A stretch of 64,000 nt of DNA. Origin: an uncultured Planctomycetota bacterium (lineage in GTDB: Bacteria; Planctomycetota; Planctomycetia; Isosphaerales; Isosphaeraceae). The notes below the pieces were generated by a model. It was not told where the DNA came from, made no database searches, and saw only the letters and a program-made list of their open reading frames with translations. The position numbers and the translations under genes are program-made. Positions 16,119 through 53,683 of this stretch are shown here, one piece after another (position 1 is the stretch's first letter; each line of letters opens with the position of its first letter). Location: assembly GCA_963845755.1 (NCBI GenBank), contig CAWJTV010000020.1, positions 704,001 through 768,000 of the forward strand, in the 5' to 3' direction.

Positions 16119-16335
16119 CCGCACCCGAGCCCCGCGCTCCTCGTCACCCCGGACGAGCGCGGGGCGATTGCGCGCGCCCTCAAGGTTTGTCCCGCCCCAA
16201 GTTCGTCTCGGCCCGGCGCGAGCGCGGGATGATCGCGTGCGCCGAGCACAGTGAAAGAATCAAGACGGTGCCCCGAACATCATCTCACGCCCGTGAACCG
16301 CTTTGAAGATGTGGTTCACCGGACGCACTCGACCA

Positions 16336-16368
16336 GTTTGTATGCTCTGGCGGTCGGATGCGGGTCTC
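16336..16368 (-). ncRNA. Displaced 5' strand of Y-RNA-like unit 1 (remainder at 39759-39882)
   Basis: Reverse complement GAGACCCGCATCCGACCGCCAGAGCATACAAAC matches the motif at 40186, 41638, 44012; joins 39759 through the shared target duplication. Confidence 0.6.
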
Positions 16369-16474
16369 CGGCACGTCCGAGTGTGACCTCGGCTCATGCG
16401 GGAATTCAGACGCATGACGCTGCGAGGATGTTCGCGCCAGGGAAGATTATTTGAGACAGGCCGTGGCCTGAGCC

Positions 16475-34717: not shown

Positions 34718-36294
34718 TCACTCAGTCCCGTCGGCGCCGGCCTGGTGCAACTCCTGCCAGCGGTCCGGCAGCAGTTCGTCGATCCGCTTCGCCGGGTGCG
34801 TGCTGATCCGATCGAGCCCATCGCGGAGGTAAGCCTGGGGGTCGATCCCCAGATTCTTGCAGGTCGTGCACAAGCTCATCAACACGGCCGCCGTCTGGCC
34901 TCCCTGGTCGCTCCCCGCGAATAACCAGTTCTTCCGTCCCAGCGCCACGGGCTTGAACGCGCGGCGCGCACGCACCGTTGTCCAGTTCGAGGAACCCGGC
35001 CTCCAACGGACGCTTCAGGGCCTCCCAATGGTTCAAGGCATACTGGATCGCTTCGCCGATCGGACTCTTGGGCAGAACCTTGGGCTGCTCGGCTTCCAGC
35101 CAGGCGTGAAACTTGTCGAAGATCGAACGCGATCGCTCGTTTCGCAGTTCGTGCCGGAACGCGACGAAGGCCTCGTAGTCCGCGGTCGCGCGCTTCTTGG
35201 CGTCGCGTTCGACGTCGTAGAGCAGGCTGATCCATGCCAGCGCCTGATGGGACCGTTGCGGGTTCGACGGTCCGCGCCTCGTAGAACTTCCGTCGCGCGT
35301 GCATCATGCAGCCGACCTCGATAATCTCGCCCGACTTGTACAGGCCGTCGTAGGCCGAATAGGCGTCGGCCTGGAGATAACCCTGGAAGTCCTTGAAGAT
35401 CTCCCGGGGCCCGGTGGCGCTGCGGTCCGGCGTGTAGCGATAGACCACGTAAGGATGGCCGCGGTCGCCGACGGAGACCCAGAGCCGGCCGGTCTTGATC
35501 CCCTTGCCGTCGTGGTCCTGCACCGGCACCGTCGTGTCGTCGTTCTGGACGACCCTGGAGCTGAGGATCTTCTTCAGCATCAGATCGACGATCGGCTTGA
35601 GCAGATCGGCGATCGTGGCCATCCAGTCGCACATCGTTGACCGCGACAACTCGACGCCCGAGCGATCGAGGATTCCCTCGAGGCGATAGAGCGGCAAGTG
35701 ATCGGCATATTTGCTGACGGCGACGTAAGCCAGCAGCCCCGGGCCTGGCAGGCCCTTGTCGATCGGCTCGGGGAGCACGTCGGCGATCACGACGTTGGCC
35801 TGGCAGTCCTGGCAAGCGTACTTGGGGCGGATGTGTTCGAGGATGACCAGGCGGGCGGGGATGAATTCGAGTTGCTCGCGGACTTCCCGGCCGATGCAGG
35901 TGCGCTCGGCGCCGCAGTCGGGGCAAGTGCGTTGTTCGGGCGGGACGTCGTGCAAGACCGGCACTCGGGGCAGGCTCGCCGGCAACGGCTTGCGTCCGTG
36001 GCCCTTCTTCTGGGCCGCACTCGGAGCGGGCGTCGGGGCCGGGGCCGGCTCCGGGGTCGGGGCGGGTGTCGGCGCCGCCTCGGCCTGCTCCAGGATCTCC
36101 CGGGCGAAGAGCAAGAGCTGGGCCGGGTCGATCCGCTCCCCTTTGGGACCGTAGCGCTGGCGGAGGAGCTGCTCGAGCTGGTGCTGGAGCTTCTCGTTGA
36201 GATGGACCTGCTGGGCGAGCGACTTGAGCAGCTCACGGATGAGCTGATGGGCCGCCTCCAGGTCGTCCGGGAGTGGGTCCGCGAGGGTGATCAT
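34718..36294 (-). CDS. tnpC: IS66 TnpC transposase, copy 2
   Basis: Same motifs as copy 1. Confidence 0.9.
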
Positions 36295-36333
36295 ACCCTA
36301 TACTACGTTGACGGGTGCTCGATTGTTGGCGCA

Positions 36334-39312
36334 TTATGCTCCTGTCGGTAGATTATTCTCCGAATTTCGAAGGGGAGTGGCGGGCCGCGAGTAGCGGACG
36401 CGCCGTCGGGCCTTGTCCAGATCGATGCCGGCCAGGAGGGCGGCGAGTTCGGCGGTGGTCATCTCGACGCGATCGGCCGCCGCGTCCGGGATGCGGAAGG
36501 TGCCGCGTTCGAGCCTCTTGATGCTGGCATCACAGGACCCTCGTTCTTGTGGCGTTACACAAATCCTGAGACGTTGGGCTACTGCCGCCACGAATCGGCG
36601 GCCTCTCTTGCTACCGGTCGGGACGGTCCTTGGGAACGACCAACTCAGGGTGCCGGGCGGCGATCCAGGAGTTCTTTCGTCTGGCCAGTTGTCGCAGGCG
36701 ACGAACCTCGTCCTTGTCGGCCCACACGATCAGATGCTTTCCCGAAGGCGTACGCCGCGAATGGACCCAACCCTGCTTGATCCAATAATGGACCTTCTGG
36801 GCGATGACGCCGAGTTTCCCGGCCAAGTCGGGGATCCACCACTCGTCCTGGCCGACGAGGTCGTCGCGGAACAGTTCTCCGACCAGCCCAAGTTCACGGA
36901 CCAACGCCCCGATCGTTCCCGCCGTGAACACGCCGCGACGGCGCGGCGGGACGAAGCCCTCGGCATTGAGCCGCGCGGCGATCTGCGACAGGTGAAGTCC
37001 TTCTCGATGGAGTTGCTTGATTCGTTCCGTGAGGCGTCGAAAATCCTTCAATTGCTCATACCTGCCGACTGGCCTCGCGACCTGCTGTTGGGTTGTCATG
37101 CCGCCGAGCCAAACGATCGTTACCTCGTTGAGCTCAGTCGCCTTGTCGGCCACGACAATGACCCGCTCCACCGCGCAGCGCACGATCTGCTTGCGATCCA
37201 TCGCCGACGTGCCTGGTGCGTGCCAGAGCGCGGCGACGCTCTCGGAGAGCGATCGAATCCGTTGGCGATCGGCGTCGTTCAGCGTCGCCGGCAGTCTCGT
37301 CAGGAACCGATGGTAATCCTCCTCCGTTTGACGCTGCTTCTTCAGCGCGTCCTCCCACCGCGCCTCGAGTGTCCGCGCCACGAGTCGGTTCTCGGGCTCC
37401 ACGGCCTGATACTGCCGCTCGGCCCTCTCGACCTCCTGGCGTGCGCGTTCCAGAGTCTGACGCCAATGGTCGTGGAGGCGCTTGCGCTCTCGCTCGGCGT
37501 TCTCGATCGCGCGTAGGCTCAGGTCCAGCGCAGCGGGCTCCAACTGCGCGGAGCACTTCCTTCGCGACCAGGTCGTCCAGCGTCTTTGCCGAGATGCACC
37601 CGCACGGCTCGTCCAGGGCCAGCCGCCAATACTCGCCGCAGTGATAGCCGGGCTTCTTGTCGGCCTTGTATCGCGTCGTCATGTGGCGGCCGCATTTCCC
37701 ACAGACGACCAGGCCGGGCAGCAAGGCCTCGCCGCGTTTGGGCACGCCCCGCGTGTCGTGGAGCGATCGATTCTGTTTGAGGCGTTCCTGATTCGCGAGA
37801 TAGCGATCCCAGCTAATGTACGCTGGGAGCCGATCCGGCAGGAACACGGCCAACTCCTCGGGCGGCACGAACCACTTGCCGCCTTCGGCTCGACCCGTCG
37901 TGGGATTCTTCGTCCCCTGCGCGATGTAGGCCATAAGCGTATGCCCCCGCATAGATGGGGTGTCGCAAGATCGACAGGACTCGACTGGGAGAGGCTGGCT
38001 TCCACTCCAGCTCCCCAATGCGCCCACCGCGATGACGGCGAAATCCCAGTTGCAGGTTGTTCACGACCAGGTAACGGAAGACCGCGTAGGCGGAACCGAG
38101 TTCCTCGAACTTCTCGAACACCAACTGAATCATTCCACGCGCCTGCTCGTCAGGCTCTTGAATGATCTCGCCCGTGGCCGTCTTGAGGTATCCCAGCGGA
38201 ACGGCCAGGAACAGCTCGCCTGCGCTCCGCTTTGTTCCGACTGCCTCGAAGCAAACGATTGTACATAGTAATCAATTCGTATTCGCTCATTGCGCTTTTC
38301 ATGCCAAGGAGGAGACGATCGTTACTGTCCAAGGCATCGTAGACGCCATCTTGATCGCATAGCAGGGTGCGAAAGATGCCGCAGACGTCGATAAGACGAT
38401 GCCATTCGGTATTCGACCGCGACACCCTGCTAAGCTCCAACCCCAGCACGATCCCCACGTGGTTCAAGCTCACTTCCGTCATCAACCGCTGGAAGCCCGT
38501 GCGATGGTCGGTCAACTTGCCGCCGTGGCCCTGATCCTCGTCGATGATCACCACCCGCTCTGCGGGCCAACCGAGCCGTTGCGCGAACTGCGCCAGAGCA
38601 TACTGCCGTTCGCGAGACTCGCGGTTCTCGAGGACTTGCTGCGGCGTTGACTGCCGCACGTACACGATCGCGAGTCGATCGAGATGCCGATCGCCAATCT
38701 TCGAGCTCGACCTCTGGCCGAAGGTGGAGGTCGATGGAGTCTCGTCGATTGATCTGTCCGTGCGATTGACGGCCCGTGCATCACGAGATTTCATCGCGCA
38801 CCTCCTGAGCGGTGCGAGGCGCGCCGAGTTGTCGAGTCACGATGTCGCTGAGGGTGAGCAGCGTTCGTTGACGCTGCTCGTCCGTCAGTCGGCTCCAGAG
38901 TTGGTCCAGCACCGACGGCCGAACGACCGACGTGCGCGGGGGGAGCAACGAGTCCGGCGTCTCGCGACATGGGGCACCTCCTTGGATCACGGGGTGTTGA
39001 GCTTCGATCCATTCCGCCAGCCGCATCAGGCCGGCCAGCGCGATTATGGGGGTGTCCGACGATTCCTGTAAAGTCGAGAGGATGGGGGCAGTCTTACTCG
39101 TACTTCTTGGCCCAGACGGCCAGGCCATCGCGATCCCAGTACAGGATCTTGATGCGGTCGCGGCGCTTGTTGACGAAGACGAAGAGATGACCGGAGAGGG
39201 GATCTAGCGCCAGGCTGCCTGATGCCAGGGCGGCCAGGCCGTCAAAGCTCTTGCGCATGTCGGCCGGCTGTTTGGCGAGATAGACGCGGACCGCGGCGCT
39301 CAGTCCGAACAT
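36334..39312 (-). pseudogene. tnpB: IS66 TnpB split by recombinase element, copy 2
   Basis: Same junctions (TCTTG at 36516-36520 and 39105-39109). Confidence 0.88.
36611..38794 (-). CDS. Large serine recombinase, copy 2 (three apparent +1 indels); element spans 36516-39104
   Basis: Matches 12045..14225 apart from single-base differences. Confidence 0.88.
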
Positions 39313-39665
39313 GGGCGTCCCTCCACGACCGCGATGAGATGGCGGAGGGTCAGGGGGTCGAATCCGGGGGCGACGGCGATCCGACGTCCGTTGGAGAGGA
39401 TGAGTTCGAGGTGGGGTCCCGAGGCGGCGCTCGGCGGGATGGGATCGGGAAGGATAGTGACCGGGAGGAAATGGCGGTCGGCACTGGCGAAAGGACGATC
39501 GTCGCTGGGAGTGCGATCGGCCGGGGCGGGCTGGTAGAGATGCTTTCGGAAGGAGTGAAGCGAGATTTGGCGAAGGCGGCAGAACTCGGCTTGAGTCAGA
39601 CCGCTCCTGCGGAAATCGTTGAGGAGGGCATTCCATCGTAGATCGATGGTTCGGCTTCGAGACAC
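39300..39665 (-). CDS. tnpA: IS66 TnpA, copy 2
   Basis: Identical protein to 11173..11538. Confidence 0.85.
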   Translation of the reverse strand: MSRSRTIDLRWNALLNDFRRSGLTQAEFCRLRQISLHSFRKHLYQPAPADRTPSDDRPFASADRHFLPVTILPDPIPPSAASGPHLELILSNGRRIAVAPGFDPLTLRHLIAVVEGRPCSD

Positions 39666-39758
39666 GGCGTGATCTCCCTGACGGGACCACTGGCCCCGAC
39701 AGCACTATCATCGCGGGGAGTCACGCCGCTTTGTAGATGCACTTCACCGGACGGACAC

Positions 39759-39882
39759 AACTGGTCCGTCCGGCCCGTTAAGCCGGTCGTAGGTTCGAAT
39801 CCTACCTCCTCCGCCCCGTCCATCCGCCAGGCGCGTGGCCGGGGCGGTTAGGCGTGTCGCTCCGGAAACTTGTGCAGGTCTC
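39759..39882 (+). ncRNA. Y-RNA-like unit 1 (3' part): hairpin, T-arm and closing strand
   Basis: CCGGC-CCGTTAA-GCCGG, GTAGG-TTCGAAT-CCTAC, CTCCTCCGCC, closing ACTTGTGCAGGTCTC complementary to GAGACCCGCA of the displaced 5' piece. Confidence 0.6.
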
Positions 39883-39938
39883 GGTTTTCTCGCACGCACT
39901 TCAGGATCATCATCAAAGTCACCAACACGGAGGCGATC

Positions 39939-40166
39939 ATGGCCGAACGACTCAACGGCGGAGCCGTCCTGCACGTCCGCTTCGACGGCCGAAGCCTTGA
40001 CCTGCCGCTGGGCGATCTCCATGTCGGCCTCGGGGCCGACGACTTCGAGATCAAGACCGCGCTGGCCCGGCACCTCGAGGTCCACGAGGCGAAGCTGCGC
40101 GACTATACCGTGGACCGGCACGAGACCGGCAACCTCACCGTCCGGCCCGAGGCCGTGTTCGGTTGA
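39939..40166 (+). CDS. Small putative ubiquitin-like (beta-grasp) protein
   Basis: GGAGG RBS; 75 aa; beta-beta-alpha-beta-beta pattern; C-terminus RPEAVFG; ThiF/E1 gene in same locus. Confidence 0.6.
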   Translation: MAERLNGGAVLHVRFDGRSLDLPLGDLHVGLGADDFEIKTALARHLEVHEAKLRDYTVDRHETGNLTVRPEAVFG

Positions 40167-40185
40167 TCGGATAATCAAGGGACCA

Positions 40186-41617
40186 ACCCGTACCCAACGG
40201 CACGAGCGTACAAACAACTCTTTCATAAGGCAGAAGTTGGGTGGTGTCCCAAGCGTATTGAATGTCGTAAGTCTTGCGGTGTTTGCGACTTAGGCAAATC
40301 TTACTGAGGGATATGTGAGCCATTCACGCATGGTCCACACATGGTCGGTCAACCCCGCGGCCATCGCGGGCGATCGCTGCCGAGGTCGGCCCTGCTCGTC
40401 TCGATCCGCCAACGTCCGTACAGGCCAGCAGAAGTTATAGCTGTAAATTGTGAAATAGGTCATTGATTCATGCACTTGCCAATCCTTCGAGAACGTGTAG
40501 GTCTTGCGTACCTTCCGGGCGTTGCGATGTCGGTCCGTCGCGTTGTCTCGTTCCAGGAACGAGACGTTGACCTGCAGGCTCACCTTGGAGCGCCGCAAGG
40601 CCCGACCCAACGCCGCCATCGTGCCGAAGATCAGATGGACCAGGATCTCCACCACCCGACCCCGCCGACGCTTCTTCTGGACAGTGGCATAGGTCAGCTC
40701 CGGCAGCGGCTCCTTCTCGGGCACCATCCGGTGGCTGTCGCGCCCCGTCGGGGTCGTCGTGACGTCCGTCCCGTAGACGTGCAGGATCGCGTCCTTGTAG
40801 GCCGGGTAGTCATCGCTGGTCATCAGCCGCAAGGGACGGCCCTCCGTCCGCTGGTAGACGTCGCTGACCACAGTCTCGGTCTGCTCAGACATTCGCGCCC
40901 CGGGAACGACGCAGAGCACCAGCTTGTGCTCCGGATCGTAAGCCGTGTGATCCCACCAATCGCCCCGCTGGGCGTCGGCCGGGTCTGCCGGGTCGCAGTG
41001 CTCCTGCTTCTTGTAGACGAAGGACCATTTCTCGTCGAACTGGACTTCTTCAGTCCGAGGGGGAAAAAGCCACGAGTTCGTCGTGGAGTTGCTGGGCGTG
41101 ATCGCCCAGGAGTCGGCTGTAGCGGACCACGGTATCGCGGTGCACCCCCACCAGCCGAGCGGTGGCCCGCACCCCAGTGCGATCGGCCACGTGTCTTATC
41201 AAGTCGAGGGCCTTGTCCGCGGGTAAGGTCGAACCGAACAGGGGTGTCCCCTTCCGTTCGGAGAACCGGGCCTTGCAGGTATGGCAGTAGAGCAGCCGGA
41301 TCGGTTGGGTCTTGCCGTAGCGGCCGACGACGGTCAGATTGCCGTGTCCCCTCTTGCCGTAATCGGGGCAGGCCGGGTCTTGGCAGCAAAAGCGGGAGAG
41401 ATCGTCCATGGATACATCTCCATGATTGCGTGACTGGTGCAGACGAACTCATAGCGATAAACCCGTTATAAGCGGTGGACTTGCGACATTCAATACAGCT
41501 AGGACACCACCAGAAGTTGCAGGTTCGAATTCCTGCCGGCCCAATGGCTCAATCATGGGGCCGTAGCTCAATGGCAGAGCGCTGCTGAGTTTCAACGCTG
41601 ATGCGACTTGTACGGGG
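40186..41617 (+). ncRNA. Y-RNA-like unit 2, permuted tRNA-Met-like mimic, split by IS1 (40186-40239 + 41520-41617)
   Basis: CCCGTAC/GTACGGG closing helix; order anticodon loop, T arm, closed acceptor, D arm. Confidence 0.72.
40240..41511 (-). mobile_element. IS1-family element (insA 41409->41050, insB ->40290)
   Basis: IRs GGTGGTGTCC..TATTGAATGTCG; 8-bp duplication AGAAGTTG; CCQDPAC..CHTC, FDEKWSFV, TSDDY, LERDNAT, SPAMAAGLTDHVW. Confidence 0.92.
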
Positions 41618-41634
41618 CTGGACATCGATCGGGA

Positions 41635-41788
41635 ACAACCCGCACCCGACGGCATGAGCCTACAAACCTAACCGGGACCAGTCCTCGAAAGAGGGTGGGG
41701 GTTCGAGTCCCCCCGGGTTAAAATCCGTGGCGAAACTGGTAGACGCGCTGGTAGATGATCTTAAGCTCATGCGACTTGTGCGGGCTGT
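41635..41788 (+). ncRNA. Y-RNA-like unit 3, permuted tRNA-Leu-like mimic (uninterrupted)
   Basis: CCCGCAC/GTGCGGG and GCATGAGC/GCTCATGC helices; variable arm CCTC-GAAA-GAGG, T arm GGGGG-TTCGAGT-CCCCC, D arm TGGCGAAACTGGTAGACGCG. Confidence 0.75.
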
Positions 41789-41792
41789 CTAG

Positions 41793-45689
<3,897 letters not shown>

Positions 45690-45734
45690 GCGGACCTCCC
45701 GCCGAACCGCCACGTCGTCTTCCGTTGACGGATC

Positions 45735-45796
45735 GTAGGGTGGGTGAAACCCACCAACTGACTGAGACTTACATCGGCGGGTTGCACCCACTCTAC
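45735..45796. repeat. REP doublet (REPIN-like)
   Basis: GTAGGGTGGGTGAAACCCACC ... GGCGGGTTGCACCCACTCTAC. Confidence 0.7.
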
Positions 45797-45835
45797 AGCG
45801 GCGGTTTTTCGAACGGGCGACGCAATTCTCTTGTG

Positions 45836-46723
45836 ATGCATCGGACATCTGTGGCGATCAAGAAACGCTTCCTCGAGACCCTGGATCGATTGGCGGCCGT
45901 CGAGGATCGCGCCCTCGCCTCAGAGTTCCTGGCACCGATGCTTCGTGGAAGGGTAGTCCAGGTACGGATTGCCGGAGTCGTCTGCCGGCTCAGGGTGAGC
46001 CCACCGAGTTTCGAAGGTTGGGGTGTCTTCCGGCCCACGTCTTCAAACACGGCGGAACTGGTCCGTCCGGCCCGGATGACCGAGCGACGCCAGTACCTTG
46101 AGCTCCTCCCCTTGCTTCGGATGATCGTCTGTCTCCGCGTGCAAGACCAATGGCTGGCGATCCCCTCGCACGGTGCCGACACGCATCTTCGGATCGAGGG
46201 GCTGTCCTCCATCCGCCTGGTCGAGGAGGCCCAGCTTTTCGAGGTCGTGCTCACCCGCTTCGACGGCGCACAATGCTGGTATGACGGTCCGGACCCGCGC
46301 CGAGATCCCGGGACGGCGGCCTACCTTCGCGAGGCGCTCGGCCGAATGGTCGAGCCCCAGCAATTGAGCCGGAACGGACTGACTGCGGAGGAACGAGCAG
46401 CGTACGTTGTGAGCTACGCACTGCGGCTCCAGGCGGGGATCGAAGCCCATCGCGACCGGGTCGAAGAACGACTCCGCATGGCGCTGGCCCACGCGGGCGC
46501 CAGGCTTCGCGACTACCAGGAACGGGGCGACGTTTACCGAATCGCCTATGAGGTCGATGGCCGCCGCCACGTTTCGGTCATCGACCCCCAGGACTTATCT
46601 GTCCAGGTCGCCGGCATCTGTCTGAGCGGCCAGGACCGCCGCTTCGACCTCAGCAGCCTGGTCGGCGTGCTCCGCGAGGCAGAGGGGGGTTCCCAGATCG
46701 TCCGCGTCGGCCCCGATTATTGA
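45836..46723 (+). CDS. Hypothetical protein with C-terminal E2-like Cys motif
   Basis: ..HVSVIDPQDLSVQVAGICLSGQDRRFDLSSLVGVLRE; lies between TROVE-like and ThiF genes. Confidence 0.6.
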   Translation: MHRTSVAIKKRFLETLDRLAAVEDRALASEFLAPMLRGRVVQVRIAGVVCRLRVSPPSFEGWGVFRPTSSNTAELVRPARMTERRQYLELLPLLRMIVCLRVQDQWLAIPSHGADTHLRIEGLSSIRLVEEAQLFEVVLTRFDGAQCWYDGPDPRRDPGTAAYLREALGRMVEPQQLSRNGLTAEERAAYVVSYALRLQAGIEAHRDRVEERLRMALAHAGARLRDYQERGDVYRIAYEVDGRRHVSVIDPQDLSVQVAGICLSGQDRRFDLSSLVGVLREAEGGSQIVRVGPDY

Positions 46724-46856
46724 GCGTTTCAGGCAATAGGCAACCTCGCGCCGTGGCCAGGTCTTCCGACCTTGCCACCCGACCGGTCGAAAGACTCCCT
46801 CGGGTGATCTGACGGGTCAAGGCTTCCCTGCTACGCCCAGAAGAGAGGTGACAGCG

Positions 46857-47501
46857 ATGGCCGACAAGTTCCATCACGAGCGGATTTATCGCGGAGCCGA
46901 CCTCCTGGGCAGGCTCGAGACGGTCCCGATCACGCTTTGCGGCGCGGGGGCTTTGGGATCCCTCCTGGCCGATAACCTGTCGCGCCAGGGATTCCGCCGG
47001 TGGACGGTCATCGATCGCGACCGCGTCGCGGAGCACAACGTCGGCACGCAGCTCTACGGTGAGGCAGAAGTCGGGGCGTGGAAGGTCGAGGCGCTACGGA
47101 ATCGTCTCTTCCGGGCCGTGGGAGTCGAGATCGAGGCCATCGCCAAGGAATTCACGGAACGGAACTCCCGGAGCCTCTTAAATGGCACGGGCTTGGTCCT
47201 CGACACGTTCGACAACTCGGCCGCGCGCGGGCTGGTCCAGAAGCGTTGCCGGGAGCGAGCCGTGCCGTGCCTCCACGTCGGCCTGTTCGCCGACTATGCC
47301 GAGGCGATCTGGGATGAGACCTATCGCGTCCCCCGCGACGTGGCTCTCGACGTGTGCGATTATCCGCTGGCTCGCAACCTCGTTCTCCTGGCCGTCGCGG
47401 TGGCTTCGGAGGCGTTGATTCGGTTCGTCCTCGATGGCTTGAAGGGCGGCTGGTCGGTTACGCTCCGCGACCTCGCCATCCGACCTCTAGAGCCCAGATG
47501 A
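46857..47501 (+). CDS. ThiF/MoeB/E1-family adenylyltransferase
   Basis: CGAGALGS, IDRDRVAEHNVGTQ, KVEAL, DTFDN..R; no CxxC pairs; DVCDYP. Confidence 0.9.
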   Translation: MADKFHHERIYRGADLLGRLETVPITLCGAGALGSLLADNLSRQGFRRWTVIDRDRVAEHNVGTQLYGEAEVGAWKVEALRNRLFRAVGVEIEAIAKEFTERNSRSLLNGTGLVLDTFDNSAARGLVQKRCRERAVPCLHVGLFADYAEAIWDETYRVPRDVALDVCDYPLARNLVLLAVAVASEALIRFVLDGLKGGWSVTLRDLAIRPLEPR

Positions 47502-47515
47502 TCAGAGAATTGGGG

Positions 47516-50500
47516 TCACGGCCGGGCGAACCAGGTTTGCTCCGGCACTTCCAGTGGGATATAGCAGAACGCGTCTTGCTGACGTCCGCTGAGGTTCTCC
47601 ACCGTGTCGCGAAGCGACGTCTTGAACTGGTCGAGCGTGTAGGCATCGGCCCGATTGCCGTTCGGATTTGCCCCCTGGAATACGCGCAGGACGCCCAGCG
47701 CGAACAGCCCGTGCCCATTCGGGACGTCGACGTCGCTCGGCCCTTCTTTCGAGGCCACGAATGTGATCACGCGGCGCTTCAGGTAGAGCTCGCGCACCAG
47801 GGGCTTGATCTCGCTGACCACGGACTCGTCCACTTTGTGGACGCCGTCCAGGAAGACGATGACTCGGCAGCCGTAGTCGGTCAATTGACCCAGGAGGTCG
47901 CAGAGGTCTTGCGCCGGGATGACCGACCTGGAGGGCTGACCGAGCTGGCTGTCGGACGCGGCGATGATCGTCGAATCCTGTTGCACCAGGACGTGAGCGG
48001 CGATCGCGATGGCCACGACATCCCCCTTGTTGACCCGCTTCTTCTTGAGCAGATCGTCCAGGCGGTCGAGCGCGGCGATGATCGAGGTTGACGAGGCTTC
48101 TGCATGAGTCAAGACCTGCCGCGTCTCAACCTTCATCCGGGCGGCATCGGTCGAGACCAGGTGGTCGCCGAGGAACTGGGCGACCTCGCTCGCGTCCTTG
48201 TCGGCGAATGGCACAGGGGGCAAGTGCTGGTCGGCGAGCTTGTCGGTGCCAATGCTGAGAACATGGAGCTGTGGTGTCGTCGCGATCGGCTGGGGCGGTT
48301 GAACGTAGACCATGTCGAGAGTCTCGGTCCGTCGGGTGCCGCTGACGCTCATGGCATCAACCGCCAGGCGCACTTGTCGATTCGGGACCAGGTCGATTTC
48401 GACGTCCTCGGAGAGACTGGCCACGGGCTGGGCGATCGGAGCCTGGGCCCGTAGCCGCTCGTCGACGATAATGCGGCGCTCGCGGATCTCCGCCTTCCCC
48501 TCATCAGTGGCGATCTTGACCGAAAGCCTGGGCCTGGCAACGTTGACTCTCCACACCACGCCCGGCGCGGGAATCCGGGCATCTCCGCCGATCGAGGCGA
48601 AGACAATCCGAGGGGGCTTGCTGGCGACCGCCACGGCCTCGGGCGGCGCCGTGTTGGCCGGCAGCGGTGCCAGAGCCTGCCCCATGTCCCCGATGCGCCA
48701 GAGCCGCTCCAGGACATCGGGGCGGTTCATCATCCGGGCATAGGTGATGATGGGGACGAAGTCGGCCGACCGGGACGAGAGGTAAGGCGGGTTCGTATGC
48801 CACCCCAGCAGCCGTGTGTCCCCGGCGATCGAGGTCTCGTAATAACCGCCGGGCGTCCAGACCACCCACTCCTTTTCCGCGTCGAGGAGCAGGGTCAAGG
48901 CCGGGTTATCTTGCTTGGTCGTCGGCAGGAGGGTCTCCAGCGGGATCGGACCGAGCGCGGGAATGGAAACCATACGCCGGACTTTGATACCGATCGTGTA
49001 AGTCAAGGGCTCCAATCCGTCGACAAGTTTGACGAATTCCGCGATCTCGGCGGGCTTGGCGTAGTATTTCCGGGTCTCCCGGCCTGTGCCCGTGCCGGCC
49101 TCGAGGACGGTATCACCGGCATTCAAGCCCATCGCGGCGGCAAAGCTCCGGGGCTGCACCGATTCCACCGTCCAGACCCCACCGGCCCGCTGGCGAAAGG
49201 CGGCGCCTAGCGCGGGCCGGGTGTCGCATCCGGCCAGCGGATAGAGCATCACGGTCTGATCTTGCGAGCTGCTGGCCAGCCATCGGCCGTCGGGCGAGGC
49301 GACCAGGGCGACGATCGGGGCACTGTGGCCGGCGAAGGTGCGGGTCCGCCGGCCCGTATCGAGGTCGAAGACCGCGATGCTCGACTCGGTGCCGATCGCC
49401 ACCGTCGCGCGGGGCTGCGCCGGGCCCGGCGGCACAAAAGTCGATGACCACCACCATCGTTCAGTGGTCGGATTGATGGCGAGCAAGAAGCGGCGGCCGT
49501 CGGCGTTGATGGCCTCCAGGCCGAAGGGATTGAGACTCGGCCTGAGCGTCCAGCCTGCATACGCCGAGATCGCGCGGACCAGCCCCTCGCGAGGCACAGT
49601 CCGCGTCCGGCGACGCATCAGGTCAAACCCCTCGTAAGTCCCCGGAGCGTTGGCCGCTCCGAACGGTTGCCGAGTGAAGGCGACGGCCTGGCTGTCCCGC
49701 GTGAAACCGAGATCAAACGGGGTGGTTCCCTTTCCTTTGAGCTCGCGCGGTGGTGCCTGCATCGCCGCGACGTCCTGGATAAAGAGGCTCTGTGCCGGTC
49801 CGCCCGCATAGGCCAGGCGGTTCCCATCAGGGCTGAACGCCATGGCCCGGACGAGTCCATGGACCCGCCGTGGGGGCTGCGGCACGAGGTTCCCATCGGG
49901 CATCGAGCGGAGCTCGATGTCGCAGGCGATCGTCATGGGATCGGGCACCTGGGCCGCGTCGCTCTTGATGCTGACCGCCAGGAGCCGGCCGTTGGGGTGG
50001 TACGCGACGACTTCGACCGGCTTCTGGTCGGCGGCACGGATCCTGGCCAGATTCCCTCCCGCCAGGTTCGCGGTGTCCAGGCCGATCACGGCCCCGCGCT
50101 CATTGCCGATGACAATGGACCGGCCGTCGGGACTGTACGCCACGGTATTGGTCTGGACGCGCGTCTCCAGCAGGGACGCGGGTTGACCCTGGGCGACGTC
50201 CCAGAGTACCACTAGCCCCTCCGCACCCACCGTGGCGAGCCGAGTTCCATCCGGGCTGAAAGCCAGCGCACGAATGGGACCCGTGTGGCGTCGCAAGACC
50301 CGGATGGGCGCGAAGTCCCTGGCAACGTCCCAGAGGATCACGGTTTGATCGTTGCTCGCGGAGGCAAGGATCGTACCGGCGGGGTTGAACACCAGACCCG
50401 TGACGCTGCTGCCATGAGCGATCGTCTGGAGATTGTTCCCAGGCGGCCGGACCAGCCGTTTGACGACCTCGCCCGATGGGTTTCGCTCGAGGCCCGGAAC

Positions 50501-50906
50501 GCGAAAAACGGTGAAATCCCCGCGAGAGACTTCGACCCCGTTTCCCCCAACGGCGAGCAGGGACTGCCCCTGAGCATCGGGCCTTGGCGAGATGGCCATG
50601 GCGTAGATCGCCCCGCGCGGGCCGCGCCAAATTATCGGCCGTATCGTCTGGTTCAGGCGCCCGCCGGCCTGGAAATCCCAGACCTTCACGACCTTGTCTT
50701 CGCCGCCGGAGAACAGGATGAACGGGTCTTGCCAGACCAGGCTGCGCACCGGCGGCATGATGGCCTCCGGTTTCGACGACCAGGATCGGCGTCTTGTCGA
50801 AATTCCGCACGTCCTCCTGGGCCCGGGCCATCGTCGCCATGCCCAGTGCCGCGATTCCCAACACGATCGCCGCGGCGGCAGTCCGCAAGTCATCACCTCG
50901 AAGCAT
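47516..50906 (-). CDS. Secreted WD40-repeat / PDZ-like / caspase-like protein; frameshift near 50755
   Basis: Signal peptide; SGGEDKVVKVWD, GHSAPIVAL..SSSQDQTV; SFAAAMGLNAGD; LHVLSIGTD, FLDGVH, HGLFA. Confidence 0.8.
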
Positions 50907-50969
50907 TGTCTGGTCTCGTTTCCTCTGGGATGGGCCGAACTGAGGATTGGGGAACCGTCGAGCGAATCG

Positions 50970-53683
50970 TCACTCGAGCGAATACTGGAAATTCCCCGCG
51001 TCGTCAACGGTCACGTGGACCGCGCGGAGCGATTCGCCCCGGGACATCCGACTGAGGACTTCCTGGGAGATCTCGGGGAGCAGCGTGTGAGTCAGGATGT
51101 GATCGACGTTCCGGGCGCCGCTTTCCACCTCGCGGCAGCGGCCGGCGATGCTCTCGACCAGCTCGTCGCCATAACGGAACGCCGCCTTGTGATTCTGGTG
51201 CATTCGCTGGCCGATCCGATCGAGCTGGAGGCGGATGATCCGGCGCATCGCCTCGTCGGAGATCGGATAGTAAGCGACCGTGATCAGTCGCCCGAGGAAT
51301 GCCTGTTTGAAGATCGCAACGCCCCGCTCGGAGCGGGCGGCGAGCAAGTCGGGGCGGATCGCCTCGGTCAGGCCCTGCGGCGAGGGGGTCGTCTCGGGGT
51401 CCTTGCAGAGTTCGAGGATCCGTTCAGTGCCGACGTTCGAGGTCAACAGGATCACCGTGTTCTTGAAGTCGATCTCGCGACCCTCGCCATCCTCCAGGGT
51501 CCCCTTGTCGAAGACCTGGAAGAACAGCTCGAGGACGTCGGGGTGGGCCTTCTCAACCTCGTCGAGCAGGACGACGCTGTGCGGCCTCCGTCGGACGGCT
51601 TCGGTCAGCACGCCCCCCTCGCCATAGCCCACGTAGCCGGGCGGCGAGCCTTTCAATCCCGAGACCGTGTGCGCCTCCTGGTACTCCGACATGTTGATCG
51701 TGATCAGATTGCGCTCGCCGCCGTAGAGCGTATCGGCCAGCGCCAGTGCGGTCTCGGTCTTGCCGACGCCGCTGGGTCCCACCAGGAGGAAAACGCCCAC
51801 CGGCCGGCGGGGGTCGGTCAGGTTGGCCCGCGACGTCCGGATCCTTTGGGCGATGGTCTCCAGGGCGTGAGATTGGCCAATGACGCGCTCCTCCAACTTG
51901 GAGCGGAGCCGCAATACCGTCTGGATCTCGTCCGCGAGCATCTTGCCGACGGGGATGCCCGTCCAGCCGGCGACGACCTCGGCGATGGTCTGCGCGTTGA
52001 CCGAGACGGGCATGAGCGGCGATTCGCCCTGAAGTGCGCGCAGGTCGCGAATCTTGGCCTGAAGATCGACTTGCGAGGCGACTAGCTCCGCGGAAGGCTG
52101 ATAGGGCTGGATCTCGCCGTCGTCCGTGGCCGCGGGCTGTTCGCCTTTCTCCTCGTGGTAACGCGCCTCGATGGATTTTCCCAGTTCGCGAATCTCTGCG
52201 ACACGCTTCCGCTCGTCCTCCCACCGCGACTCGAGGGCGGTTAGCCGGCTTCCGGCGTCTCCGAGCTCATGCCGGACCTCGGCCATCCTCTCGTCATGCC
52301 GAGCCCCGGTCGCACCTTCGCGGTCGAGGATGCCGATCTCGATCTGGAGATGATCGATCTGACGACGGCAGTCCTCGACGGCTGGGGGAACCGCATTCTG
52401 GCTGATGGCGACCCGCGCAAGCAGTATCGAGCAGGCTGACGGCCTTATCCGGAAGTTGACGGGCGGGGATATACCGGTTCGAGAGCTTGACGGCGCTGTC
52501 GATCGCCTCGTCCAGGATTCGCACGCCATGGTGCGCCTCGAGCATCGCTGTGAGCCCGCGCATCATCCGGATCGCGTGCTCCTCGTCCGGTTCCTCGACC
52601 TTGACCACCTGGAACCGGCGGGCCAGTGCGGCGTCTTTCTCGAAATACTTCTTGTACTCGGCCCAGGTCGTGGCCGCGATGGTGCGGAGCTCGCCACGCG
52701 CCAGGGCCGGCTTGAGCAAGTTGGCGGCATCGCTCTGGCCGGCCTGACCGCCGGCGCCGATCATCGTGTGGGCCTCGTCGATGAACAGTACGATCGGGAC
52801 CGACGAAGACTTGACCTCCGTGATGACCTGCTTGAGCCGGTTCTCGAACTCCCCCTTGATGCCCGCGCCGGCCTGGAGCAGCCCCAGGTCCAGGGTGCGG
52901 AGCACGACCTTTTCGAGCGCCGGGGGAACATCCCCCTGGGCGATCCGCAGGGCCAGTCCCTCGACGACGGCCGTCTTGCCGACGCCGGCCTCGCCGGTGA
53001 GTATGGGATTGTTCTGGCGGCGGCGGATCAGGATGTCGACCATCTGGCGAACTTCGGCCTCGCGGCCGATCACCGGGTCGAGCTCCCCCTTCCGTGCCCG
53101 CTCGGTCAGGTTGATCGTGTACTGGTCCAGGGCCGGCGTCCGGCTCAAGACGGCGGGCCTCGTCCCTGCCGAGTCGCCCGGGGTCGATTCGGAAGCCGGT
53201 CCCTCGTCTTCACTCGACCCGGCCGCCAGCTTCAGGAGACTGGACTGGAGCTGTTCGCCCTTGACCTTGCTCAGCTCCCGCGAGGCGCCGTGCGCGCAGC
53301 CGCGCCAGCTCCTCGTCGTCCAGCAGCGCCAGCAGGAGCACGCCCGAGCGAATCTTCGACTCCTGGAACTGGATCGACGACAAGACCCAGGCATGACGGA
53401 TCAACTGATCGATCCGCAGCGAGAGCGCCGGCATCCGCTGATGGCCCGTGCGGAGCTGGTCGAGACTCCGGGTCAAGTCCGCGAGCAGTCGCGCGGGATC
53501 GACCTCGAATTGCCGGAAGATCCGCGTCAGATCGGTATCCGGCCGATCGATCAGCTTGACCAGCCAGTGCTCGATCTCGACGCTGGGATTTCCCCGGGAC
53601 AGACAGAGCCCAACGGCTTCCTCGAGCGCCTTGAGGCAAGTCGAGTTGAGCGTCTTGGTCAAAGCTCCCGAGTCAATACCCAT
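50970..53683 (-). CDS. tssH: ClpV/TssH-type AAA+ ATPase; frameshifts near 53290 and 52415
   Basis: [93 protein letters not shown]. Confidence 0.88.

Follow-up and report, generated by a model that had tools for sequence, protein, structure and literature searches.

What bacterial Ro60 and its vWA domain do is still little understood, and ubiquitin-like conjugation in bacteria has, to our knowledge, so far been tied to phage defence. YrlA-type Y RNAs carry a GNCGAAN0-1G motif near the 5' end, as described in the accessible parts of Chen et al. (2014; PMC4201824). Here, we analyzed positions 39,759 to 47,501 of a 64,000-nt stretch of DNA (the window) from an uncultured Planctomycetota bacterium of the Isosphaeraceae (GCA_963845755.1, contig CAWJTV010000020.1, positions 704,001 to 768,000 of the forward strand), for which an original prediction made without database searches had proposed a system combining a Ro60-like TROVE protein, an array of tRNA-mimicking Y RNAs and a ubiquitin-like (Ubl) conjugation module. 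Open reading frame (ORF) reading and inspection of the sequence recovered every element of that list in its place on the plus strand, and the observation as such thus stands, whereas the interpretation was supported in part only. In our view, a conserved cassette probably couples a Ro60-like protein and an array of YrlA-like Y RNAs to a Ubl modifier system, with the copy in the window being damaged.

The neighbourhood survey, performed by tblastn with the window proteins and ORF reading, was based on about 25 loci (designated L with a number); its sources comprised 5 loci from named genome contigs, 7 from metagenomes, which were scanned with a single protein, and 19 regions from genomes of the same order or phylum. 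The original prediction had expected homologues to co-occur across genomes, and the genes for the Ubl, the TROVE-like protein, ORF3 and ThiF were indeed adjacent and co-oriented in 14 distinct loci (the window, L003, L004, L005, L041-L044, L049, L050, L052-L054 and L056), with the gene order being kept although ORF3 identity drops to 37-39%. The same genes were found in L045, L046 and L055 as far as the contig ends allow. Moreover, the set was present in rearranged form in L057 and L059, which belong to another family, in the order TROVE-like/vWA, ORF3-like, JAB, an 81-aa protein ending PFG, and ThiF; here, the TROVE-like/vWA protein is longer (hhalign probability 97.6%), the ORF3-like protein has the same cysteine motif and, in L057, a Y-like RNA lies upstream of the set (45.5 bits with the covariance model R1 described below). 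Beyond the cassette genes, clustering of all ORFs of at least 100 aa from 18 loci revealed no widely shared gene, and RNA-ligase or RNA-repair genes conserved across these loci, the partners named in the original prediction, were not found. The distribution is patchy: with this genome counted in each case, the cassette was found in 14 of 121 genomes from the order and in 7 of 401 from the phylum.

The large protein of the cassette has, according to its predicted structure, the Ro60 fold (TROVE and vWA) anticipated for it and is divergent in sequence. A profile of 44 homologues gave a TROVE-domain protein as the only meaningful match in PDB (E 2.4e-4). The structure was predicted with AlphaFold 2 (AF2) for the intact 516-aa homologue of L041 (predicted local distance difference test, pLDDT, 79.5), with which the window protein shares 91% (N-terminal piece) and 80% (C-terminal piece) amino acid identity. 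The top 12 PDB matches of this model in Foldseek were all Ro60/TROVE structures (9kop, 9nen, 2nvo, 1yvp, 9l5y and others), among them proteins of Thermus phage phiLo, human, Deinococcus (Rsr) and Xenopus, with E values of 5.6e-10 to 5.3e-7 over 517-566 columns, i.e., the whole length, and template modelling (TM) scores of 0.37-0.56. Additionally, the homologues P0176 and P0196, about 75% identical to L041, matched PF25045 (vWA_Ro60) at 30.7 and 28.7 bits (cut-off 27.7), the window piece and L041 matched VWA_2 of Pfam below the cut-off only, and the residues D339, S341, S343, T401 and D425 of the metal ion-dependent adhesion site (MIDAS) were invariant in 44 sequences. The divergent TROVE-like family comprises at least 2560 proteins. 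These proteins carry a variable Lys/Ala-rich insertion (L041 residues 101-136, corresponding to about 44430-44540 of the window) with pLDDT below 50, which could be a flexible acceptor loop.

The predicted RNA modules are structured, tRNA-like and YrlA-like Y RNAs. In an intact module, a conserved 5' strand (ACCCGUACCC.A.GGCA.GAGC.UACAAAC, or as DNA ACCCGTACCC.A.GGCA.GAGC.TACAAAC), which replaces the GNCGAAN0-1G motif, is followed by a T arm, an acceptor-like stem-loop, a D arm and the 3' strand GCGACUUGUACGGG, which pairs back onto the 5' strand in the closing helix ACCCGUAC/GUACGGGU. The motif GAGCNTACAAAC occurs 4 times in the window as compared to 0.00 expected occurrences, and GCGACTTGTRYGG occurs 3 times as compared to 0.02. 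In a relaxed Rfam search, YrlA (RF02553) was the only RNA family matching the element core, with sub-threshold scores of 31.8 bits (E 4e-4) at 41511-41584 and 21.6 bits at 41690-41749 in the window and 39.1 bits (E 2.3e-6) for the T/acceptor-like/D core of the intact L041 locus; these matches span only positions 23-85 of the 114 model positions. At gathering cut-offs no Rfam family matched in the window, and no tRNA was detected there by ARAGORN.

Furthermore, the covariance model R1 was made here from a MAFFT alignment of 11 copies, which contains 31 consensus pairs, 10 of them with compensatory changes, and searches with R1 detected 3-6 modules per locus, the window pieces included. Across 28 modules, 94.3% of the cells were paired as compared to 30-46% when the partner was slid, and 22 of the 31 pairs, distributed over 6 helices, had changed on both sides, which 0 of 500 shuffles reached, in an alignment that had been fitted to the model and thereby favours the structure. 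The modules of all loci lie on the same strand as the TROVE gene and less than 4 kb from it (in the window with the insertion sequences, ISs, set aside). In other loci, R1 revealed 1-3 further Y-like modules between TROVE and ORF3 (L003, L041, L042, L053 and others); the corresponding spacer of the window gave no R1 match (Table 1). This class of Y RNAs has a putative recognition element of its own, which differs in step with the divergent Ro60-like protein.

Reading the sequences ourselves, we observed that the Y stem strands of the third module enclose arms in the normal tRNA order in L003 (5924-6057), L050 (3900-4032) and L052 (6942-7079, minus strand), namely a D arm, an anticodon-like arm whose loop has 7 nt, and a T arm, and that the order is the permuted one of YrlA in the window, L041, L043 and L053. 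Since the arm order differs between loci, the module appears to occur in two alternative versions.

The leader of the TROVE gene contains both strand motifs of the modules in reverse order, which form a long hairpin, and a second stem, in which GAGCGTACAA pairs with TTGTACGCTC just 5' of the ribosome-binding site (a strand of this stem is also written as GAGCGUACAA). The consensus fold of 7 leaders has 52 pairs, of which 15 had changed on both sides. Because the TROVE mRNA leader mimics the module stem, this suggests that the TROVE-like protein may feed back on its own mRNA via the leader.

Regarding the modifier system, the small protein, a putative beta-grasp modifier, has 751 homologues, and F74 and G75 at its C-terminus were invariant in 43 aligned sequences. 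ThiF consists of an adenylation domain alone (PF00899, E 1.4e-24), in which GxGxxG, D56, R59, N64, Q68, K79, D119/D122 and C170 were invariant in 14 sequences. It remained below every NCBIfam cut-off, with ThiF/MoeB models as best NCBIfam matches, and its best PADLOC matches were the E1 (activating enzyme) parts of the E1-E2 models of the cyclic oligonucleotide-based antiphage signalling system (CBASS) at 62.5 bits. For the predicted complex of Ubl and ThiF, the interface score ipSAE (interaction prediction score from aligned errors) was 0.87 as compared to 0.01 for the best of 3 controls, a score that may reflect likeness to the solved ThiF-ThiS and MoeB-MoaD complexes; because such complexes have been solved, passing the mark, which 116 of 157 solved complexes and 2 of 215 mismatched pairs reach, indicates likeness to ThiF-ThiS-type pairs and is not proof for Ubl-ThiF. 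Three runs agreed in at least 96% of the contacts with a partner pLDDT of at least 86, and the modelled Ubl tail (residues 69-75) touches ThiF residues 32-37 of the glycine-rich loop, 120-124 of the DxxD site, and 169 and 172 beside C170. Ubl is thus predicted to dock on ThiF with its C-terminal Gly in the ATP site, and the pairing of the two proteins put forward in the original prediction withstood this check.

ORF3 is encoded by a single-copy gene in the 14.3-Mb genome and belongs to a family of at least 1465 proteins matched among 8000 candidates scored, with 835 clusters at 50% identity in a search of every representative. G260 and C262 of its AGICL motif were invariant in 107 sequences, and the model (pLDDT 94.9) displayed an N-terminal helix, two OB-like (oligonucleotide/oligosaccharide-binding) barrels at about residues 28-160, a long helix, four strands, the Cys262 loop and a final helix. 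For the barrels, the fold searches pointed to the coiled-coil/OB N-domain of Mpa/ARC/PAN as well as to S1 and cold-shock domains, with Z scores of at most 5.8, and residues 199-295 gave unrelated low-Z matches only (Sec3 PH, FtsQ, HPF). We consider ORF3 a candidate E2-like (conjugating enzyme-like) carrier of Ubl: the succession of helix, four strands, Cys loop and helix is a topology that we take to be compatible with UBC, and ICL(S/D)G followed by a helix presumably recalls the active sites of eukaryotic E2 enzymes. However, the UBC fold that had been expected for the AGICLSG protein was not recovered, with no UBC chain among the matches listed in three fold searches (Foldseek PDB, VIA-wide and VIA second look; whole-ORF3 model). 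ESM Atlas yielded no usable match for ORF3 or its C-terminal part, and Prok-E2_B (PF14461) was found in none of the 121 genomes and in none of the controls either, which makes this search uninformative.

One ORF3 homologue is fused to a JAB domain. A survey for JAB by tblastn with three JAB proteins covered 27 sources, of which three were uninformative and one was a duplicate, and located JAB in 13 loci and none in 10 loci with a readable ORF3-ThiF junction. Where present, the gene often lies between ORF3 and ThiF, and the JAB protein of L042 matched PF14464 at 1.6e-10. The original prediction had connected the lack of a JAB gene with a Ubl that already ends in Gly; the window indeed contains no JAB, but the connection is not borne out by the 13 related loci, in which JAB occurs together with Ubls that also end in FG (e.g., L054). 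Because the Ubls of these loci already end in FG, the JAB peptidase is more likely a deconjugase than a maturase. Apart from this, ORF3-like matches confined to the N-terminus were observed: in L009 (56-1312), only the first 80 or so residues of a 418-aa protein, i.e., the helix and the first barrel, are ORF3-like and the C-terminal region is unrelated, and similar matches occur in L010, L011, L013 and L014, in L010 and L011 right after a ThiF.

Following this, we propose that ThiF would adenylate Gly75 of Ubl, which would subsequently move to a cysteine, C170 of ThiF and/or C262 of ORF3, with ORF3 acting as carrier or conjugating enzyme, and would in the last step be attached to a target on or at the Ro60-like RNP (ribonucleoprotein), from which the JAB peptidase, where present, could take it off again. 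The Y RNAs would bind the Ro60-like protein via their conserved stem and serve as scaffold, their tRNA-like heads bringing in the conjugation enzymes, possibly through the OB barrels of ORF3, and the TROVE mRNA leader would give feedback. We infer that the RNP may be sensor, adaptor or substrate of Ubl tagging. An extension to RNA-guided Ubl tagging appears quite doubtful to us; here, the Y RNAs would be either a platform, with the heads recruiting ORF3 and Ubl being placed onto a captured RNA-bound protein, or a substrate, with Ubl being joined to an RNA end threaded through the ring.

Several observations weigh against a coupling of the Ro60-like RNP to a Ubl modifier system, in addition to the fitted module alignment and the likeness of the Ubl-ThiF model to solved pairs mentioned above. 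Pfam TROVE (PF05731) did not match the window pieces or the proteins of L041 and L054, nor anything else in this genome, whereas the controls D. radiodurans and B. thetaiotaomicron do match. The 69-bit gathering score of the Rfam YrlA model was not reached at 31.8-39.1 bits, and the GNCGAAN0-1G motif was present in the first 45 nt of 0 of 28 modules. No Pfam, NCBIfam or PADLOC family was found for Ubl, without any recurrent family in a Pfam scan of 43 sequences, and its profile had no meaningful match among PDB sequences; likewise, ORF3 had no relative in Pfam (all 107 sequences), NCBIfam, PADLOC or the PDB sequences. Finally, L006 contains ORF3 and ThiF with neither TROVE nor Ubl nearby, and L007 combines Ubl and TROVE with a truncated ORF3 but lacks ThiF. 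These two loci would be in line with a Ro60/Y-RNA locus and a ThiF operon that merely lie side by side as unrelated neighbours with no shared function. We regard this as very improbable, as the order is kept in 14 loci down to the low ORF3 identity given above, the set is kept, albeit reordered, in L057 and L059, and the Ubl gene sits within the RNA array between modules A and B.

The chief alternative to the coupling is a sulfur-carrier pathway, in which the small protein would be ThiS/MoaD/TtuB-like and adenylated by ThiF, a thiocarboxylate would form via a persulfide on a conserved cysteine, Y RNAs, tRNAs or a small molecule would be thiolated and JAB would trim adducts, as it does in CysO/Mec-type pathways. 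The bare 217-aa E1 with its ThiF/MoeB matches, the invariant cysteines in both ThiF and ORF3 and the fact that no UBC fold was confirmed for ORF3 would be in line with this, as would the T arms of the RNAs, since TtuB-type systems thiolate tRNA sites in T arms. However, ThiF scores far under the cut-offs of all ThiF/MoeB equivalogs, Ubl ends in FG and not in the GG usual for sulfur carriers, and rhodanese, cysteine desulfurase and PP-loop ATPase genes were not conserved in the cassette across 18 loci. Because the cassette has no sulfurtransferase or PP-loop partner, this pathway is weakened, and we hold it to be unlikely. Similarly, a role in anti-phage or anti-toxin defence may be drawn by analogy to Bil and CBASS Cap2/Cap3, with the Ro60-like RNP sensing damaged or foreign RNA and triggering Ubl tagging. 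This differs from the proposed coupling of Ro60-like RNP and Ubl modifier system in the biological role only, and both are compatible. The patchy distribution, the frequent loss and gain of JAB, the CBASS E1-E2 models as best PADLOC matches of ThiF and the richness of the window in IS elements speak for defence; on the other hand, the other components have no PADLOC match at all, known defence genes were not conserved alongside in the 18 loci, and a patchy distribution fits any accessory function, so that a defence role is in our estimation rather unlikely. The coupling of Ro60-like protein and Y-RNA array to a Ubl modifier system remains our preferred explanation.

The features of the window copy are given in Table 1. 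The Ubl gene lies inside the RNA array with modules A and B on either side, and the Ubl, ORF3 and ThiF genes are intact.

Table 1. Position of the cassette elements and of the inserted elements in the window.
Feature	Position	Strand	Evidence
IS66-family element (TnpC fragment, IS66 Orf2/TnpB)	34879..39758	-	PF03050 8e-54, PF05717 6.7e-24, Resolvase 2e-16
Displaced 5' half of Y-RNA-like module A	16331..16450	-	Motif match and alignment with L052, L053
Y-RNA-like module A, 3' two-thirds (non-coding RNA 1, ncRNA1)	39759..39885	+	Alignment with L052, L053, L041
Putative ubiquitin-like (Ubl) ORF, 75 aa, C-terminus RPEAVFG	39939..40166	+	ORF list, 751 homologues
Y-RNA-like module B (ncRNA2), 5' part	40180..40239	+	Sequence, R1 match 40180-40313
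IS no. 1, 1272 bp, within module B	40240..41511	.	34-nt inverted repeats
Y-RNA-like module B, 3' part	41512..41622	+	Rfam YrlA and R1 matches
Y-RNA-like module C (ncRNA3), intact	41632..41790	+	R1 77.8 bits, E 2e-16
IS no. 2, 2134 bp, between module C and leader	41789..43922	.	44-nt inverted repeats, Pfam
Structured leader of TROVE gene (module D)	43933..44128	+	Consensus fold of 7 leaders
Ro60-like TROVE + vWA gene, two frames (44129-44338, about 44340-45689), DKSGS	44129..45689	+	
Spacer TROVE-ORF3	45690..45835	+	No R1 match at E<=1
ORF3, 295 aa, AGICLSG	45836..46723	+	835 clusters at 50% identity
Minimal ThiF/E1, 217 aa, likely start ATG 46857	46848..47501	+	PF00899 E 1.4e-24

The three ISs removed in the original prediction were all retrieved, two of them bounded by inverted repeats and the third being an IS66-type element. 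IS no. 1 is flanked by an 8-bp duplication (AGAAGTTG), and shows weak IS1-type DDE and helix-turn-helix (HTH) matches; the genome contains five relatives with 79% identity. IS no. 2 encodes a DDE_Tnp_1 transposase and an HTH ORF and has three further genome copies with 99-100% identity. The IS66-type element ends one base before the start of the cassette remnant at 39759; inside it, a large serine recombinase (Resolvase N-domain) is spread over three ORFs (36611-38794, minus strand). All three IS events struck the RNA array, namely module A, module B and the junction of module C and the leader.

In the window, module A retains the 8-bp AACTGGTC, the T arm (39789-39805) and the 3' strand GGAAACTTGTGCAGGTC (39864-39880), and R1 matched its T loop only (12.6 bits, E 0.65), as compared to 29-42 bits for intact copies elsewhere. 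Its 5' half was found about 23 kb away from the rest on the opposite strand; it comprises the conserved CCGACCGCCAGAGCATACAAAC strand (also given as GAGCATACAAAC) with the motif at 16336-16347 and the ancestral upstream flank, and can be aligned up to ...ACAAACTGGTC with the module A copies of L052 and L053. At the 16-kb junction the IS66-type end lies beside the 8-bp GACCAGTT, and at the 39.7-kb junction the same IS end lies beside AACTGGTC. Because both junctions share this end next to AACTGGTC/GACCAGTT, we read the split of module A as the probable result of two events, the insertion of an IS66-family element that duplicated 8 bp and a subsequent inversion of about 23 kb. Module B has its motif ACCCGTACCCAACGGCACGAGCGTACAAAC at 40186-40215 in the 5' part (R1 40180-40313, 40.9 bits) and the T arm, acceptor-like stem, D arm and 3' strand GCGACTTGTACGG in the 3' part (R1 41455-41622, 73.0 bits).

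The TROVE gene falls into two frames because, compared with L003 and L007, it has a single additional base near 44335-44340. Contigs of two soil sequencing runs match parts of the genes at 95-100% identity, yet leave positions 43924-44403 with the frameshift site uncovered. Further downstream, a ClpB-type AAA+ chaperone gene (50970-53394, minus strand) is split over two overlapping frames, with D1 and lid in 52294-53394 and AAA_2 and D2-small in 50970-52529, which suggests either indel errors in the assembly or a pseudogene; therefore, assembly indel errors are possible, and the TROVE frameshift may be such an artefact. Since the RNA array is cut three times by ISs and the TROVE gene is frameshifted, the window copy of the cassette is, on balance, probably impaired or not fully functional.

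Directly downstream of the cassette, a WD40-repeat protein of 1163 aa is encoded on the opposite strand (47516-51007, minus strand); its final 364 residues have no Pfam family, and it is not kept beside the cassette elsewhere. Peculiarities were also seen in other loci. In L007 (1800-5300 and 8984-11661), the Ubl has a longer C-terminus, a 150-aa remnant of ORF3 is present, an array of tRNA-like matches precedes the cassette and, by sequence reading, a 628-aa SPFH/flotillin-like gene and a 264-aa membrane gene follow it. In L055 (4935-7288, minus strand), an insertion of about 2.4 kb separates TROVE from ORF3; by ORF reading, it contains a duplicated N-terminus of ORF3 and a PIN-like toxin/antitoxin pair.

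What appears to be new here is the pairing of a Ro60-like RNP and Y RNAs with a Ubl cassette, both kinds of system being known separately. In the literature searched, which was not exhaustive, no link of TROVE/Ro60 with ThiF, E1-like, E2-like, JAB or ubiquitin-like proteins was found; Iyer et al. (2006) mention neither vWA nor Ro60, and a text search found vWA, TROVE and Ro60 absent from the accessible portions of bioRxiv 10.1101/2024.11.21.623953 and PMC11601603. The cassette provides a testable hypothesis on what the Ro60 RNP recruits and on what a minimal Ubl system targets. Three large, unannotated protein families emerge from it, i.e., ORF3, Ubl and the divergent TROVE-like proteins, together with a Y-RNA class that has a recognition motif of its own and includes forms in normal tRNA arm order. 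If RNA-guided Ubl tagging were true, it would link RNA quality control to Ubl signalling in bacteria.

Compared to ThiS-ThiF, MoaD-MoeB and TtuB-TtuC, the cassette has a similarly minimal E1 with a small partner whose C-terminus is predicted to lie in the adenylation site; in contrast, its Ubl ends in FG, not GG, and there is no sulfurtransferase or biosynthetic partner. The OB-like barrels of the ORF3 model are reminiscent of the N-domain (coiled coil and OB) of the proteasomal ATPases Mpa, ARC and PAN. The PRTRC system, considered as a further candidate, was rejected: only ThiF matched TIGR03736, with 44.6 bits as compared to the cut-off of 144.75, and the other proteins had no PRTRC match. 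With bacterial Ro60 (Rsr) and YrlA, as far as described in the available sections of PMC4201824, the cassette shares a ring-type TROVE and vWA fold and the presence of several RNAs per locus, which are encoded no more than 4 kb away in the same orientation and consist of a long terminal stem and a tRNA-like head whose T, acceptor-like and D stem-loops follow the YrlA order. Contrarily, its protein is invisible to Pfam TROVE, its RNAs fall below the Rfam cut-off, have another stem motif and come as 3-6 modules per locus, and the partners are Ubl, ThiF, ORF3 and JAB, with no RNA-ligase or repair gene conserved. Bil, Bub and CBASS Cap2/Cap3, to the extent covered by the accessible parts of bioRxiv 10.1101/2024.11.21.623953 and PMC11601603, resemble the cassette in the Gly-ending modifier, the E1-type enzyme, the cysteine-bearing partner, the frequent JAB peptidase and the sparse distribution. 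Unlike in the systems described there, the E1 of the cassette is a bare protein of 217 aa, UBC similarity was not detected in the putative carrier, which displays two OB-like barrels, the Ubl falls in no known family, and a Ro60-like protein and structured RNAs are integral to the cassette.

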